A DNA stretch of 64,000 nt. Origin: a virus. The position numbers and the translations under genes were made by a program. Positions 17,963-60,737 of the stretch are shown one piece after another. Each line of letters begins with the position of its first letter. Position 1 is the first letter of the stretch. The notes under the pieces were generated by a model that made no database searches, was not told where the DNA came from, and saw nothing but the letters and a program-made list of their open reading frames with translations. The stretch lies in UHGV virus genome UHGV-1550212; one strand, given 5' to 3'.

Positions 17963-17982
17963 GTTTGTATATGTACAAATAC
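17963..17982 (-). promoter_or_regulatory. late-type promoter-like motif (minus sense TATTTGTACATATACAAAC)
   Basis: It lies about 15 nt upstream of ATG 17948, directly after the sigma-gene terminator. Confidence 0.4.
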
Positions 17983-19064: not shown

Positions 19065-20123
19065 TTATGAACGTCTTGTTAACAATGCATGACCACAATC
19101 ATAAACTGCAACATAGCCAGTGTTAAGCATCTCTTGCTCATCTTGGCCGGCGTCTACAATATGTTCTTTGCTGTTAAGTTTGACCCAGTGCTTGCAGATT
19201 GTTGATTTATCATCTGACAATTTAGGGTTAATGCAGAAGTCTGTTGAGTTTATTGTGTTGTCGAGATGTTGTTTGATGACATCGACAACTTGCTCTGGTG
19301 TCATCCAATCAAACACTGTTATGCAAGTGTAGCCATATTTGAGAGCAAGTTGAGCTTTGTTGAAGTGATAGTCGAATGGAATTGGATGATTGTGTTTTGA
19401 TTTGCCAATTGCATATGCATAGCCATATGTAGAGTTGTGACTGATTGTTGGGCAAATTTCAATCAGCAAATGCTTATAATGCAGGTCATATGACTGGCGT
19501 TCAATATTGACGTCATCACAGTCAAATGCAAGCCCAAGTTCTTGTAACAGCAAAGTTTGCCATCGTTTGTTTGTAGCTGATATGACATTTTTGTGAGCAT
19601 TGCGACATTTTTGATGCATACAAAAGAATGGGACACCATATTTTTGCTGCATCAATTTAGTGTCAATGCCTGCTGCATTGCCATAACGTTCAAGCTTCGT
19701 TGCTCTAATTTTGTCAGCATCACCCCAAATGTTGCCATATCGTTTGCGCTTTGTGTCTTGAGACTTCTTAATGTTGCCACTGCGGTTGCCATAAATAAGT
19801 TCCTTTGATTGACACGCATGTTCAGCAGCATCTGGCCCATATATGTGACCGTATTTTTGAAGCTTAATTTCATTGATACGTTCTACTGGGCCATTTGGAT
19901 GACCATAGCGTTCTTGTTTGATGCGTTTTGTGTGCTCAATTGTTGACTTTAATGCAAGCTTTGACGTGACGCCAAATTTGCGCAAACAGCCTATTCTAAT
20001 ATTGAAACTACGTTTAATATGTGATGCTTCTATTTTTGTAACAGCCAATTGCAATGCATCATCACGTTCAGTTTCAAGCATGCAAATTTGTTCATCAATT
20101 GTCATAGCATCAAACCATTTCAT
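19065..20123 (-). CDS. freestanding homing-endonuclease-like protein, paralogue 1 (352 aa)
   Basis: Carries six tandem (K/E/Q)(R/K)YG-x3-G repeats followed by YDLHYKHLLIEICPTISHNS, which resembles Vsr/DUF559-type nuclease cores. The C-terminal region aligns closely with 48845-49876. Confidence 0.75.
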   Translation of the reverse strand: MKWFDAMTIDEQICMLETERDDALQLAVTKIEASHIKRSFNIRIGCLRKFGVTSKLALKSTIEHTKRIKQERYGHPNGPVERINEIKLQKYGHIYGPDAAEHACQSKELIYGNRSGNIKKSQDTKRKRYGNIWGDADKIRATKLERYGNAAGIDTKLMQQKYGVPFFCMHQKCRNAHKNVISATNKRWQTLLLQELGLAFDCDDVNIERQSYDLHYKHLLIEICPTISHNSTYGYAYAIGKSKHNHPIPFDYHFNKAQLALKYGYTCITVFDWMTPEQVVDVIKQHLDNTINSTDFCINPKLSDDKSTICKHWVKLNSKEHIVDAGQDEQEMLNTGYVAVYDCGHALLTRRS

Positions 20124-35289: not shown

Positions 35290-36585
35290 CTATTGTTTGC
35301 GTTGTAATGTCAGTAGTCCACAGTCATATACAGGTAAAAATCCTGCAGCATTGTAGTCTTCTGCATGTGATATGTCATTGTCTATAAAATGCTCACCAGT
35401 TCGCATATTATGCCAATGACATTGTATAACATTGCTTACTAATTTATAGTCATCTACATATTTTGTAGGGTCTTCTTTTGACAAGTCTATTGTAATAACG
35501 TCGGCAGTTTTCAATTGTTCTGTGTCATCGATGATTGACTTTAGCAATGCGACAATTGTATCAGCGTCATCCCAATCCCAAATTGTGACGCATCGATAGC
35601 CTTGCGACATTGCTTTGCAACATTTGTCTGCATGACTATTTGCATGTCTATGCCAATTTGCTGCAGAGCGGCCTGTCATATACTCAAAGCTATACGCACT
35701 ATTATGCGTAAACGTTGGATTGATTTCAATTGCTATGTTCTCATAGCGTAAGTCATATGTAAATGATTCTATTTGCGGTTGCTCAAACTCAAATTGAACG
35801 TTAAGCGATTCTAACAAGTATCGTTGCCACCATTGATTTTGCTTAGATATGATGTGACCTTGCGCAAGTTTACAATGTGTAGTCATGCAATAATATGGCA
35901 CACCATAACGCATCATATTTGTACGTACAACTGCTTGTGTGCGTCGTTTTAAGTCACCGCCCCACTTGTTGCCATACCGTTCAAGCTTTGTTTGCGTTGC
36001 CAGTTGTATATTCACACATCCATTTGCTTTGCCATATCGTTCAAGTTTGACTTGCGTAATTTTGTCCATAGGCCCAAATGCATTACCAAATTGTGCAATC
36101 TTTGTAGCTTTCATTTTGTCAATATTGCCAACACCTTTGCTGCCAAATCGAACAAGCTTAGTGTCGCCAACTTTGCATTTAACATCATGCAATTGTGATA
36201 TGAATTCTACACCGTATTTGAGCAAGTTATTGATGCGACCATTATAACGCTGTTTAATGATGCCATGCGATGTTTTGCGTGGTGCATAACGAACAAATGG
36301 TGTATTAGCAAGTTCAGCATCTCGCAATTCTTCAAGTTCTTTTATTCGAGCTGCATGTTCAGATGCGTTATCATATTGCAACGCGCCAGCATGACGTTCA
36401 TATGGCAATCTTCCATGCTTACGTATGAAAGCAATTTTGTTTGCATATTGCACACGTATCTTACTATGTGTAGATACTCTTGCGCTTAATTTTGCATATG
36501 GCGTTTCTGCAATCAATTTATCACGTTCAGCTTCAAGTTCTTTTATTCGAGCTTCAAGAGCATCACCAGTTAGTCGTTCAGCCAT
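35290..36585 (-). CDS. freestanding homing-endonuclease-like protein, paralogue 2 (431 aa)
   Basis: The N-terminal LTGDALEARIKELEAERDKLIAETP module is duplicated internally (IKELEELRDAELANTPFVRYAPRKTSHG). It also has (K/E)RYG repeats and a YDLRYENIAIEINPTFTHNS core. Start ATG 36585. Confidence 0.75.
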   Translation of the reverse strand: MAERLTGDALEARIKELEAERDKLIAETPYAKLSARVSTHSKIRVQYANKIAFIRKHGRLPYERHAGALQYDNASEHAARIKELEELRDAELANTPFVRYAPRKTSHGIIKQRYNGRINNLLKYGVEFISQLHDVKCKVGDTKLVRFGSKGVGNIDKMKATKIAQFGNAFGPMDKITQVKLERYGKANGCVNIQLATQTKLERYGNKWGGDLKRRTQAVVRTNMMRYGVPYYCMTTHCKLAQGHIISKQNQWWQRYLLESLNVQFEFEQPQIESFTYDLRYENIAIEINPTFTHNSAYSFEYMTGRSAANWHRHANSHADKCCKAMSQGYRCVTIWDWDDADTIVALLKSIIDDTEQLKTADVITIDLSKEDPTKYVDDYKLVSNVIQCHWHNMRTGEHFIDNDISHAEDYNAAGFLPVYDCGLLTLQRKQ

Positions 36586-36615
36586 TGTGCATGAATGTTC
36601 AATATGTAAATTCAC

Positions 36616-36629
36616 TATATGTACATATA
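36616..36629. promoter_or_regulatory. perfect palindrome TATATGTACATATA, a candidate bidirectional late promoter between terL and HE paralogue 2
   Basis: It lies 24 nt upstream of terL ATG 36653 and 31 nt upstream of HE ATG 36585. The same core precedes many structural genes. Confidence 0.45.
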
Positions 36630-36652
36630 ACACGAATATTCAAGTTAGATGC

Positions 36653-38644
36653 ATGGCTGAAGTCAAGAATCAAGTGTTTAATCCAGTAGCACAATTCAAA
36701 TCTGCTGAAGAAAAAGAAGCTGCGAAAGTTATATGGTGCAGTGAATCAGTCGCAATGGCATATGATGCAGTTGACCAAGGCTTGCCACTTAGAGCAAATC
36801 CGTGGTTCTTTGGCAATATTGCACTGCGTAAGCCCGGATTGCTATACAGATACACTGACATAGAATTGCGTGAATGGCTTAGATGCAAGTATGACATATT
36901 ATATTTTGCTGACACATGGTGTCAGATTTTAACTCCAGATGGCACAAGAAAGCATTTTAATTTGAGACCATATCAACGCAAAATGCTGCGTGCATATCAA
37001 CGACAAAAGTATACGATAGTTCTTACTGGGCGACAAGTAGGCAAAACGGTCGTTACATCAGTATTTCTCGCTTGGGCAGTCATTTTCAATCGTGAGCTTA
37101 ACATAGCAGTACTTGGCGACCGCTTGGCAACATCAAGTGAAAACCTGAACAAAACAAAAGACATCATAAACAATCTGCCGTTCTTTATGAAGCCTGGTGT
37201 GTTTGTTTGGAATGGCGGAATGGTCGCATTTGACAATGGTTGCAAAATTATCACAGGTACTGCTCAAAAGTCATCACTTGTCGGTAAGACAATTCACATC
37301 TTATATCTTGATGAGCTCGCAATTCCACCTGCTCAGCAATCAAAGACTCTTGTAGATTATGCATTGCCAACAATTGCGTCATTGCCAACTGGCAAAGTTA
37401 TCGTAACATCTACGCCATCTGGTGATAATGTGTTCAAGACTTTGTGGCTTGGTGCAATTAACAAAACAAATGGCTTCTTTCCAATTCAAGTAAACTGGTG
37501 GGATATTCCTGGCCGTGATGAAAAGTGGAAAGCTGAGCAAATCGCAATTCTTGGTGAAGATGCTTTCAATGAGCAATACAACTGCGTGTTCTTGTCAGGT
37601 GCAACGTCAATTTTCAATTCAAGAGCAATTGATGATATTGCAAGACGACAGCAAAAGTATGAATTTGTTGCTGATGAGCGTCTTGAATCACTACTCAGAT
37701 TCTTCATTGCTGATTCAGATGTCGGCACTGAACCCGAGCCGCACTCATTTATGACTTGGCGTGCAGATATTGACCCAGCAACACTCAAAAATGAAACATG
37801 TATCATCAATATTGACATTGCTGAAGGTTTATCTGGCGACTTTTCTGTCATACATGTGCATCGTATAGTTGACATTACAAAAGATGTTGAACTTGAACTT
37901 GATGCAAGCAATCTGTATGATATGTTTGACGATGACAAAAAATCATTGTTTGCAAAAGCAGTTGAAATGCAACGTCAAATGTCAGCAACACAAGCTCAAG
38001 ATGATGACGATGATGACGATGACGACTGGTTTGGCGCAGACGATGATGTCGCTCAAGGCGTTGATGCATATCAAGATTATGCGAATGCTGCAGTAGAAGA
38101 GATTGGCTTATGGCGTTCAAATGTGACATCAATCAAAGTCATGGCTCTGTATTTGCAGTTCTTAATGACGTATGTGTTTGATGCAAACAAAACAAAGATT
38201 ATCTATGAACGCAACAAATATGGTGGAGAGTTTCGTTCATATTGTTTGTCTGAACGTGCACGCAATATTGCAATTGATGAAGAGAGCTTCGTAAGCTTCC
38301 AACGAACTCTTGGTTCAGAACAACTTGCACCAGGCTGTTCAATTACGCCTGGCACCAAACCAGTGTACGTAAGACAGCTCAAAGACCTTATTGAAACTGG
38401 CAAGATTCTTGAAAACAATGCAGATACGCAAAGAGAGCTTACATATTTTGGCGGTGTCAAAGGCAAGAATGGTCACGTGTCATATCAGGCGTCACCTGGC
38501 TTCCATGATGACATTGCAATGACTCTTGTATCTCTTGCAGCATTTATGGACACTCGATGCAATGACTGGCTTGAACTGCTTGATGTGTTCTACAATGGCA
38601 GCAGTCAAACAAGTTCTGATGATGACGATGATGACTGGATTTGA
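36653..38644 (+). CDS. terL: terminase large subunit (663 aa)
   Basis: Walker A is VLTGRQVGKT and Walker B is ILYLDELA, with a T4 gp17-like layout. ATG 36653 was chosen because the tracked 36425 start overlaps the opposite-strand HE gene. Confidence 0.9.
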   Translation: MAEVKNQVFNPVAQFKSAEEKEAAKVIWCSESVAMAYDAVDQGLPLRANPWFFGNIALRKPGLLYRYTDIELREWLRCKYDILYFADTWCQILTPDGTRKHFNLRPYQRKMLRAYQRQKYTIVLTGRQVGKTVVTSVFLAWAVIFNRELNIAVLGDRLATSSENLNKTKDIINNLPFFMKPGVFVWNGGMVAFDNGCKIITGTAQKSSLVGKTIHILYLDELAIPPAQQSKTLVDYALPTIASLPTGKVIVTSTPSGDNVFKTLWLGAINKTNGFFPIQVNWWDIPGRDEKWKAEQIAILGEDAFNEQYNCVFLSGATSIFNSRAIDDIARRQQKYEFVADERLESLLRFFIADSDVGTEPEPHSFMTWRADIDPATLKNETCIINIDIAEGLSGDFSVIHVHRIVDITKDVELELDASNLYDMFDDDKKSLFAKAVEMQRQMSATQAQDDDDDDDDDWFGADDDVAQGVDAYQDYANAAVEEIGLWRSNVTSIKVMALYLQFLMTYVFDANKTKIIYERNKYGGEFRSYCLSERARNIAIDEESFVSFQRTLGSEQLAPGCSITPGTKPVYVRQLKDLIETGKILENNADTQRELTYFGGVKGKNGHVSYQASPGFHDDIAMTLVSLAAFMDTRCNDWLELLDVFYNGSSQTSSDDDDDDWI

Positions 38645-48768: not shown

Positions 48769-48814
48769 TTGTTGTTTGTTGTGATATGTGATATGATGCA
48801 AAATGCATATTCAT

Positions 48815-48858
48815 ATTGTATATGAATATGATACAACAAACGTGTCAATTTTGCACAG
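48815..48858 (-). promoter_or_regulatory. early/middle-type promoter-like motif
   Basis: Minus sense CTGTGCAAAATTGACACGTTTGTTGTATCATATTCATATACAAT. It overlaps the last 14 nt of HE paralogue 3 and is followed by a TGCATTTTGCATCA box. Confidence 0.45.
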
Positions 48859-49876
48859 CATGACCGCAATCGTACACAGGCAAAAAGCCTGCGTCAAGCA
48901 TCTCTTGTGTATCTTGTCCACAATCTTTAACATATTGTCGTGTTTTGAAATTATGCCAATGCTTATGAATTGTTGACTTGTCATCTGACAGCTGTGGATT
49001 GAGCGCGAAGTCAGTCGAGTCTACTGGTTCACCTGCAAGATGCTTTCTAATGGCATCAATGACTTCATTGTCATCCATCCATTCGAATATTGTAATGCAA
49101 GTGTAGCCATGCTTGAGAGCAAGCTGAGTTTTGTTGAAGTGATAGTCGAATGCAAGTGGATGATTATGCGTTGATTTGCCCATTGCATATGCAAATCCAT
49201 ATGCTGCATTGTGTGAAAACGTTGGGTTAATTTCAATGAGCAATTTGCAATGTTCATTGCTGTAGTTCAAATCAAATGAAAATCTATGCAATGAAATTTC
49301 ATCATAGCCACAATTGATGCAAAGTTCTTGCTGCAGTTTATCATGCCAATATTTGTTTATCGCTGAAATTGGGCGACCATTTGCATCTCTGCATCTCTTT
49401 GTCATGCAAAACCATGGCACACCATATCGTTGCAGCGTTGTTGCATTGATTTTTTGTTTAGGCCCAAATGCATTGCCATACAAGCGTTGTTTTGTTTCAA
49501 GCATTTTGTTAATGTTGCTTAGAGAGTCACCCCACTTTGCTCGTTTTGTTTCAATTGATTTTGCGACGTTGCCCCATGCATTGCCGTAGCGCTCTAAATT
49601 TGTTTGTCGTTGTTTAGCGACATTGCCCATGCCATTGCCATATTTTGCACGTTTTGATGCAACCATTTTCGCAGCAACATCTTTGCATTGATTGCTATGT
49701 TCTACACCATATTTGTGCAAACATGCTATTTTTCGATTGTACTTTGTTTTAATTGCGCCATGCGATGTTTTACGTGGCGCATATCTCACAAATGGCGTTT
49801 CTGCAAGCAATTTGTCTCTTTCCTCTTCAAGTTCTTTTATGCGAGCTTCAAGAGCTTCTCCTGTCAATTTTTCCAT
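48845..49876 (-). CDS. freestanding homing-endonuclease-like protein, paralogue 3 (343 aa)
   Basis: The N-terminus LTGEALEARIKELEEERDKLLAETPFVRYAPRKTSHG is shared with paralogue 2. It has (K/E)RYGN repeats and an FDLNYSNEHCKLLIEINPTFSHNA core. The C-terminus is shared with paralogue 1. Confidence 0.75.
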   Translation of the reverse strand: MEKLTGEALEARIKELEEERDKLLAETPFVRYAPRKTSHGAIKTKYNRKIACLHKYGVEHSNQCKDVAAKMVASKRAKYGNGMGNVAKQRQTNLERYGNAWGNVAKSIETKRAKWGDSLSNINKMLETKQRLYGNAFGPKQKINATTLQRYGVPWFCMTKRCRDANGRPISAINKYWHDKLQQELCINCGYDEISLHRFSFDLNYSNEHCKLLIEINPTFSHNAAYGFAYAMGKSTHNHPLAFDYHFNKTQLALKHGYTCITIFEWMDDNEVIDAIRKHLAGEPVDSTDFALNPQLSDDKSTIHKHWHNFKTRQYVKDCGQDTQEMLDAGFLPVYDCGHAVQN

Positions 49877-49905: not shown

Positions 49906-49942
49906 AGCGCAGCAGTGTAATCTCACGACTAACTGCTGCGCT
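49906..49942 (-). terminator. rho-independent terminator downstream of the primase-helicase gene
   Basis: 10-bp stem AGCGCAGCAG/CTGCTGCGCT followed by AUUUUUG in the minus sense. Confidence 0.7.
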
Positions 49943-50110
49943 TGAACATTGTGCTATGAAAGAATGACCATCCCAAACACCCAAACAAGCACAAATGTTC
50001 CGACACAAGAAAACGGAAGAACCCGAAAGAAGCGAGGAGCACGCTTTGTTTGTGACTGGATTGTTATCAATGTATGTACTTATAGGGTGTTTGTTCGTGG
50101 GTTCTTGTCA

Positions 50111-56040: not shown

Positions 56041-56060
56041 GTGTTATATGTACACAAAAC
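56041..56060 (-). promoter_or_regulatory. late-type promoter-like motif (GTTTTGTGTACATATAACAC)
   Basis: It lies between terminator 56060-56085 and ATG 56022. Confidence 0.4.
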
Positions 56061-60716: not shown

Positions 60717-60737
60717 TTTGTATATGTACATAAAAGA
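60717..60737 (-). promoter_or_regulatory. late-type promoter-like motif (CTTTTATGTACATATACAAAC)
   Basis: It lies between terminator 60736-60765 and ATG 60701. Confidence 0.4.

Follow-up and report, generated by a model that had tools for sequence, protein, structure and literature searches.

The 64,000-nucleotide stretch of the virus genome UHGV-1550212 analysed here (the window) contains three minus-strand open reading frames (ORFs), at 19065-20123, 35290-36585 and 48845-49876 in its ORF listing, whose products combine a helical N-terminal region, an array of short repeats and a predicted nuclease domain. We describe them as putative freestanding homing endonuclease genes and refer to them as copies 1, 2 and 3; their parts and key residues are as follows.

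19065..20123, minus strand: copy 1, 352 residues, putative Hef-like endonuclease with a single, 5'-truncated N-terminal module
~19596-19958, minus strand: repeats of copy 1
~19254-19595, minus strand: predicted nuclease domain of copy 1 (key residues of the protein: D213, E222, H229, N230, H253 and K256)
~19083-19253, minus strand: predicted C-terminal beta subdomain of copy 1
35290..36585, minus strand: copy 2, 431 residues from its ATG, putative Hef-like endonuclease
36211-36576, minus strand: duplicated N-terminal helical module of copy 2
35863-36198, minus strand: DUF7487 repeats of copy 2
35518-35862, minus strand: predicted Vsr-like nuclease domain of copy 2 (key residues of the protein: D278, E287, N289, H294, N295, H318 and K321)
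35308-35517, minus strand: predicted C-terminal beta subdomain of copy 2
48845..49876, minus strand: copy 3, 343 residues, putative Hef-like endonuclease
49706-49870, minus strand: N-terminal module of copy 3
49382-49693, minus strand: repeats of copy 3
49025-49381, minus strand: predicted nuclease domain of copy 3 (key residues of the protein: D202, E215, N217, H222, N223, H246 and K249)
48854-49024, minus strand: predicted C-terminal beta subdomain of copy 3

Aligned over their full lengths, copies 1 and 2 are 34% identical, copies 1 and 3 46%, and copies 2 and 3 40%. Together with the E-values of 1e-45 to 1e-91 obtained by tblastn among the three copies, these identities mark them as real paralogs rather than chance resemblances; the same tblastn searches found no fourth copy in the window. 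The longest ORF of copy 2 opens with a GTG at 36633, 48 nt upstream of the ATG at 36585, and it is this ATG that matches the gene starts called in two relatives (P0027 and P0029).

A preliminary description of the sequence had credited the three ORFs with an N-terminal module, tandem repeats, a nuclease-like core and a shared tail, and all of these features are borne out by the ORF listing and the alignment. Copies 2 and 3 both have the N-terminal module, LTG(D/E)ALEARIKELE..., and the alignment confirms its duplication inside copy 2 (residues ~1-57 and 75-128). This helical hairpin is likewise doubled in two alleles from related genomes (P0022 and P0023) and halved in copy 1. The repeats have a period of 18 residues and the consensus N-[VI]-x-K-x3-T-K-x2-R-Y-G-N-x2-G, with four or five internal units per protein plus capping units, and the core (Y/F)DL...IEI(N/C)PT..HN and the VYDCG tail are seen in all three proteins. 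Database searching returned 53 homologs, all metagenomic. Across an alignment of 48 homologs, D202, P218, H222, N223 and H246 (copy-3 numbering, here and below) are invariant, and E215 and K249 are kept in at least 90%. An AlphaFold model of copy 3 built on this alignment (predicted local distance difference test score 89) has a helical hairpin at residues 6-56, followed by five or six repeats of one helix each (65-165), an alpha/beta domain (~166-284) and a small beta subdomain (~300-335).

The repeat region had been described as a layout that could not be named. It corresponds to the Pfam family DUF7487, the repeat array of Hef-like proteins. Only copy 2 scores above the cut-off for this family (29.5 bits against 27), with copy 3 reaching 23.7 and copy 1 12.1, and only copy 2 matches PHROG 3339, 'homing endonuclease' (2.5e-7), copies 1 and 3 alone giving no match. 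Scans of the window proteins returned no match in NCBIfam, no family at E <= 0.01 among the PADLOC defence-system models, no GIY-YIG, HNH or LAGLIDADG match in Pfam, and no Pfam match to NUMOD or helix-turn-helix (HTH) families in the N-terminal region. The proposed likeness of the core to Vsr/DUF559-type nucleases stands at the level of fold, where the best matches of the nuclease domain include a DUF559-like protein and Vsr, but not at the level of Pfam, where neither Vsr nor DUF559 matched these multi-domain proteins even at E <= 1. The predicted fold also shows the Vsr-like catalytic domain by which members of the EDxHD family are recognised. The PDB was searched by sequence with a profile of the full-length proteins, with the nuclease domain alone and with a nuclease profile of 24 sequences, none of which gave a meaningful match, and no solved structural analogue of the DUF7487 repeats was found. 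Foldseek comparison with viral models recovered the same architecture in many gut phage 'endonuclease-like proteins', as well as in a PA5oct 'putative homing endonuclease', a KARL-1 DUF7487 protein and giant-virus proteins.

Direct searches were nearly blind to the window proteins, and copy 3 found one weak match only when compared by tblastn with GenBank phages. The link to Hef therefore required an intermediate and profiles. The intermediate, P0037, is a distant homolog (E 5e-20 to copy 3) with 1210 matching places across 391 phage records of GenBank, often with several matches in one genome; these include the 'Hef' of Campylobacter phage IBB_35, a 'possible homing endonuclease' of CP220, F-LimX of Dickeya phage LIMEstone1 and proteins of RaK2-like jumbo phages. 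The GenBank note on the IBB_35 protein reads 'similar to Hef [Bacteriophage U5]'. Comparison by hhalign of the window-family profile with IBB_35 Hef gave a probability of 99.1% (E 1.7e-18), and with F-LimX 98.1% (E 7e-14), both alignments spanning the repeats and the nuclease core. IBB_35 Hef and F-LimX are themselves members of PHROG 3339 (E 1e-162 and 1e-176) and match DUF7487 at 48-52 bits, above the Pfam cut-off. When these two annotated Hef proteins are added to the alignment, D37, H57 and H81 (alignment numbering) are invariant and E50 and K84 are kept in at least 90% of sequences. A full-library search with copy 2 returned 1235 representative clusters at E <= 1e-3 and 30 at E <= 1e-30, so the family is large and the short subfamily is a small, lineage-specific branch of it. 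Within the uncultured 462-kb phage LR756500.1, 16 places match P0037, several of them within ~10 kb of terL (193362-195813; region 182762-193211); judged by these matches, this genome is an extreme expansion of the same endonuclease family.

Cleavage of nrdB has been reported for the Hef of phage U5 (PMC2988022), four 'Hef-like' freestanding endonucleases have been described in LIMEstone1 (PMC3296691), and Taylor et al. put Hef-type endonucleases together with I-Bth0305I in the Vsr-like EDxHD lineage (PMC3239194). Sequence and profile comparison supports the placement of the three window proteins as a divergent, shortened Hef-like branch of this Vsr-like ('EDxHD'-related) homing endonuclease lineage. 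The reading of the genes as homing endonucleases in the preliminary description is thus backed by profile homology to annotated Hef-like freestanding enzymes.

Two near-complete relatives of the window, a 181-kb genome from ENA and a 175.5-kb genome from IMG/VR, allow the state of each site to be compared. Their large terminase subunits (TerL) are 94% identical to that of the window in the ENA relative, whose terL likewise encodes 663 residues, and 99% identical in the IMG/VR relative. A near-DNA search with the terL region gave no match among GenBank phages. There is no close relative in culture, the nearest cultured TerL proteins being those of Chryseobacterium phages MA9V-1 (40% identical) and MA9V-2, and a TerL scan of JGI metagenome contigs found no further close relatives. 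In MA9V-2 (OR513085.1, 39359-40615), residues 8-416 of TerL match in one piece, as against 95% coverage in MA9V-1, and terL of MA9V-2 may be interrupted or split.

The first site, between the gene for a 526-residue protein and a sigma gene, holds an ortholog of copy 1 in the ENA relative (L017; 96.9% identical). Two other contigs carry alleles of 424 and 500 residues (P0023 and P0022) with two N-terminal modules and no upstream overlap. In the IMG/VR relative (L021) the gene is absent, and the sequence reads ...GGTTTGATG-TCTACATG-TGTTAACAAAATGTTCATAA..., the final 21-25 nt of which correspond to the 3' end of the endonuclease ORF in L033. We considered this empty site as an ancestral target and rejected it: with the 3' end of the ORF still in place, it is a deletion scar rather than a virgin site. 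The long alleles at this site end in a tandem duplication of the YDCGH motif (…VYDCGHAKLLADDCGHC*; 3' ends at L033 6215-6275 and L034 6443-6503). They also carry the heptamer GATGACT both in the start-codon region and near the 3' end, a short direct repeat through which the scar-forming deletion could have arisen.

At the second site, between the gene for a 347-residue protein and terL, the window allele recurs in two relatives (P0027, 96%; P0029, 88%). The ENA relative instead carries P0002, which is 35% identical to copy 2 and in its 3' half shares 77.6% nucleotide identity with copy 3, indicating exchange between sites. The IMG/VR relative (L004) retains a 220-residue stump of the P0002 type that consists of repeats only and has lost the nuclease domain. 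Homology between the window and both relatives ends at the same point, window position 36495, 30 codons into copy 2. In the IMG/VR contig (IMGVR_UViG_3300045988_149023, L004 1-1850), an opposite-strand ORF of 327 residues (48-1031) stands where the nuclease half and the 347-residue neighbour would be expected. It has a signal peptide of the lipoprotein type and repeats of a beta-propeller-like 'DG..W' motif. The contig begins here, and the replacement is either real or a contig-end or assembly effect.

At the third site, between a gene for a 1199-residue protein and the clamp-loader gene, the copy-3 allele is present in two short contigs, and the IMG/VR relative carries a 455-residue allele with about 11 repeats that is 40% identical overall, with ~125 nt at either end conserved in nucleotides. 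An exact look-up of the clamp-loader protein gave no match. Four more divergent alleles, from four contigs, occupy a fourth site, which lies outside the window close to a DEAD-box helicase gene. Universal presence of the genes at identical positions, which the preliminary description had named as speaking against mobility, is not what the relatives show, and this is a second line of support for the homing reading. The genes are absent, truncated or replaced by divergent paralogs at sites whose flanking DNA is 92-96% identical between the window and the two relatives. For orthologous pairs, the ratio of nonsynonymous to synonymous substitution rates (dN/dS) is 0.14 for copy 1 and 0.12 for each of copies 2 and 3, against 0.12 for TerL in the same comparison, which indicates that the intact genes are maintained by purifying selection. 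The GC content of the three genes is not distinct from that of their flanks.

We are now able to propose a mechanism for these genes, which probably encode freestanding homing endonucleases that are active and belong to the Hef-like group with its Vsr fold. A long DNA site would be bound by the DUF7487 array, made up of helix-loop repeats of 18 residues each, with the N-terminal helical hairpin module possibly aiding DNA binding or dimerisation, and the Vsr-like domain would use its single active site to cut near the bound site, the candidate catalytic residues being D202, E215, H222 and H246/K249. By analogy with I-Bth0305I, the enzyme is probably dimeric. The genome cut would be that of a co-infecting relative without the gene or with another allele of it, and recombinational repair from the nuclease-carrying genome would copy the gene and its flanks into the cut genome. 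With time, the genes would be swapped between sites, truncated and deleted. The states seen among the relatives (intact, site-swapped, N-terminally truncated, reduced to a nuclease-less stump, or deleted to a scar) fit such a cycle of invasion, exchange, decay and loss.

Nonetheless, several observations weigh against this proposal. Sliding-window identity around copy 1 is mosaic, without a clear co-conversion tract. The comparison with relatives lacking the genes, which the preliminary description had envisaged, did yield one endonuclease-free allele, at the copy-1 site, but this is the deletion scar; no pristine empty site, and so no intact target site, was found among the relatives. The sites are occupied in most relatives, which is also compatible with the retention of a useful function. 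Two of the four named EDxHD positions are not conserved (N174 and H246, as mapped by sequence), and the Mom/GNAT-like domain of typical Hef proteins is missing, so that the activity could differ from theirs. Finally, we infer cleavage and homing from sequence.

Some of the same observations suit a different account, in which the genes are resident (domesticated) site-specific nucleases kept because they benefit the phage by excluding competitors, degrading host or rival DNA, or stimulating recombination, and in which the divergent alleles reflect diversifying selection or an arms race. Such a role would agree with dN/dS values of 0.12-0.14, similar to that of terL, with the filling of each site in nearly all relatives and with the failure to find a pristine empty site; beneficial side-roles of phage homing endonucleases are also described in a recent report (SegB; PMC13096335). 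We nevertheless regard it as rather unlikely. The scar (L021) and the truncation (L004) occur in an otherwise intact, near-identical genome, which implies that the genes are dispensable, and the alleles found at one site are paralogs shuffled between sites, as mobile cassettes would be. The homologous Hef proteins are, moreover, classed as homing endonucleases. Exclusion and homing are not mutually exclusive in freestanding endonucleases, and biologically this account overlaps with the homing mechanism proposed above.

The surroundings of the three genes include the following further features.

20110..20123, minus strand: 14-nt overlap between the start of copy 1 and the 3' end of the 526-residue gene; left edge of the presence/absence polymorphism
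36586..36652, no strand assigned: 67-nt spacer between the divergent copy 2 and terL genes, with the perfect 14-bp palindrome TATATGTACATATA at 36616-36629
36616-36629, 700-713, 17968-17981, 50071-50084, 56045-56058 and 60721-60734: TATATGTACATATA and its near-copies
48806-48830: perfect 11-nt inverted repeat CATATTCATAT/ATATGAATATG upstream of the clamp-loader gene, differing from TATATGTACATATA
49906..49942, minus strand: G+C-rich hairpin (perfect 11-nt inverted repeat) followed by a T-run, terminator-like, between the 1199-residue gene and copy 3

All three copies adjoin core genes, as had been pointed out from the start: copy 1 precedes a sigma-70-type gene, copy 2 is divergent from terL, and copy 3 lies between the gene for the 1199-residue, helicase-like protein and a clamp-loader gene (AAA and Gp44_lid domains). 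Pfam returned no match for the 1199-residue or the 526-residue protein, which the preliminary description had taken for a primase-helicase and a virion protein, respectively. The further suggestion that the 14-nt overlap of copy 1 with the upstream 526-residue gene is a hallmark of insertion did not hold up: the longer alleles at this site (L033 and L034) start 3 nt past the upstream stop codon without any overlap, and that of copy 1 results from the loss of its first N-terminal module.

Within the spacer between copy 2 and terL, the palindrome TATATGTACATATA is a possible shared regulatory site of the two genes. It occurs six times in the window with at most two mismatches, against an expectation of 0.26, and the motif may be a phage-specific promoter or operator. 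A scan for sigma-70 promoters around copy 2 found sites no more frequent than in shuffled sequence. The terminator-like hairpin at 49906..49942 suggests that copy 3 forms a transcription unit of its own. Two runs of aspartates occur in the neighbouring TerL (window 36653-38644), …QDDDDDDDDWFGADDD… within its linker region and …SSDDDDDDWI at its C-terminus; such runs are unusual for a large terminase.

Palindromic or recurrent motifs that adjoin the genes and lie upstream of core genes would also be expected if the proteins had lost catalysis and served only to bind DNA through the repeat array, for instance as regulators of the neighbouring terL, clamp-loader and sigma genes, keeping just the shell of a nuclease fold. 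The substitution of the E and the last D of the EDxHD motif and the loss of the Mom-like domain point in the same direction. This account is very improbable, since the putative metal-binding aspartate D202 and general-base histidine H222, along with E215, H246 and K249, vary little or not at all across the 48 homologs and the annotated Hef proteins, and the Hef proteins themselves show the same H..K replacement. Deletion of a regulator, or its exchange for a 35-40%-identical paralog, would moreover be unexpected between near-identical genomes. It is scarcely credible that the proteins are instead Vsr/DUF559-type enzymes of repair or modification (mismatch nicking or Mom-like DNA modification) rather than of homing: the best fold matches do include a DUF559-like protein and Vsr, and distant relatives do carry a Mom/GNAT-like domain, but Pfam gives no Vsr or DUF559 sequence match, the GNAT/Mom core is exactly the part that is missing, and three to four divergent paralogs per genome at variable intergenic sites do not fit.

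Read as Hef-like homing endonucleases, three genes without annotation, from an uncultured gut phage with a genome of about 175-181 kb, are placed in a barely characterised Vsr-fold lineage, and the gain, swap, decay and loss of such genes are documented among near-identical genomes. Several freestanding endonucleases per genome beside terminase and replication genes, and their mutual replacement at fixed intergenic sites, are already known in T4-like phages (PMC3296691, PMC2988022). Large phages are expected to carry freestanding homing endonucleases next to core genes, and current understanding is not overturned. What is new is the reduced architecture, with no Mom/GNAT core and a new N-terminal module, and the clean series of allelic states seen within one lineage of uncultured gut phages. 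The subfamily indicates that a Hef-like nuclease can exist without the Mom/GNAT-like domain. The genes also mark boundaries of recombination and mosaicism by terL and by replication and transcription genes, which is relevant to phage comparison and classification.

More generally, DUF7487 is a widespread repeat array (>1000 clusters) with no solved structure and merits structural and specificity study. A bolder proposal, which we consider quite unlikely, is that the array is a modular DNA-reading device: a fixed scaffold (N1, K4, T8, K9, R12, Y13, G14, N15 and G18 in every 18-residue unit) would position a few hypervariable base-reading residues, and retargeting would proceed by changes in the number or order of repeats (5 versus about 11 units at the same site) and by swaps of array and nuclease between paralogs. 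If this were true, the array would be a natural, compact and possibly programmable DNA-binding scaffold without a solved structural analogue, and the lineage without the Mom/GNAT-like domain would represent a minimal functional enzyme.

Among known systems, the Hef-like enzymes (U5 Hef, the IBB_35 and CP220 'Hef' proteins, LIMEstone1 F-LimIII, VII, VIII and X; PHROG 3339) resemble the window proteins in being freestanding amid conserved phage genes and often present as several paralogs (PMC3296691). Both have a DUF7487 'KYG' array followed by a Vsr-like core, D...IE-x-(D/N)-(G/P)...H...YH..K, and C-terminal 'HW ... YDCG' elements. Identity between them is only 21-28%, and the window proteins are shorter, at 343-431 residues against about 530-590. 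They carry a helical hairpin module at the N-terminus, where some distant relatives have a zinc-ribbon-type one. By their title, Sandegren et al. 2005 reportedly describe hef and mobE as substituting for each other at one intergenic site.

The long Hef relatives also differ in having a Mom/GNAT-like core of ~100-125 residues between the nuclease domain and the C-terminal hairpin, which is absent from the window proteins. In relatives of 450-590 residues this core, placed after a 'YAR.c...' segment and before 'HW ... YDCG', is matched by Pfam models of Mom and GNAT. Only the flanking segments, 'STDF..NP' and 'HW...VYDCG', are left in the window proteins and their close relatives, and a Pfam Mom match was not obtained for F-LimX. 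The C-terminal Mom/GNAT-like domain (PF25680; PHROG 1384, 'Mom-like DNA modification protein'; Acetyltransf_1) is carried by P0035, P0037, P0050, P0053 and IBB_35 Hef (L022 2387-4111), where this Mom-like domain of acyltransferase fold follows the Vsr-like nuclease. The idea that DUF7487-Mom fusions represent the repeats on a non-nuclease enzyme was rejected, as those proteins hold the nuclease domain too.

The EDxHD motif of I-Bth0305I comprises E170, D196, N208, H213 and D222 (PMC3239194). In the comparison with this enzyme (PDB 3R3P; PMC3239194, PMC2677866), D196 and H213 are kept as D202 and H222, and the asparagine N208 corresponds to N217 with the same five-residue spacing. By a mapping from sequence spacing and hhalign, the first E of the motif would be replaced by N174 and the last D by H246 (with K249) in the window family, and the same H..K is found in annotated Hef proteins. 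Both I-Bth0305I and the window proteins place the DNA-binding region (predicted in the latter) N-terminally and the nuclease C-terminally. That of I-Bth0305I consists of NUMOD2/HTH motifs, in contrast to the DUF7487 repeats of the window proteins (PMC3239194). I-Bth0305I is encoded in an intron and other EDxHD members lie in inteins or fractured genes, whereas the window genes stand free between intact genes.

A fractured terL is found in distant relatives of the window terL (L009 2346-5985, L010 and L012 5908-9570), with the break at the Walker A region (…SRQ(V/I)GK|C…). The N-terminal part closes with an intein-like N-fragment, and the remainder of TerL is encoded by a third ORF, behind an intein-like C-fragment (…VLSHN|T) with which that ORF opens. 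The separate ORF between these two encodes 372-380 residues, in which a zinc ribbon and NUMOD-like motifs accompany a Vsr-like core (…IIEFNG.(Y/F)WH…). It has D at the last EDxHD position, and its nuclease core aligns with the window family by hhalign at 90% (E 1.7e-6). This layout is the split-intein and freestanding-endonuclease arrangement of Dassa et al. 2009 (PMC2677866).

With the Vsr mismatch endonuclease and DUF559-type proteins (PDB 1CW0 and 3HRL), the window proteins share the same minimal PD-(D/E)xK-derived fold, as predicted, and an Asp/His catalytic pair. The former are, in contrast, single-domain, repair-type enzymes without repeat arrays, and are neither multi-copy nor found in variable intergenic phage sites. 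The T4 seg (GIY-YIG) and mob (HNH) genes, on the other hand, are alike in lifestyle, being intergenic, beside essential genes for the terminase and replication, variable and multi-copy (PMC2988022, PMC3296691), whereas their catalytic domains are unrelated to those of the window proteins and their DNA-binding modules, NUMODs in seg and mob, are different.

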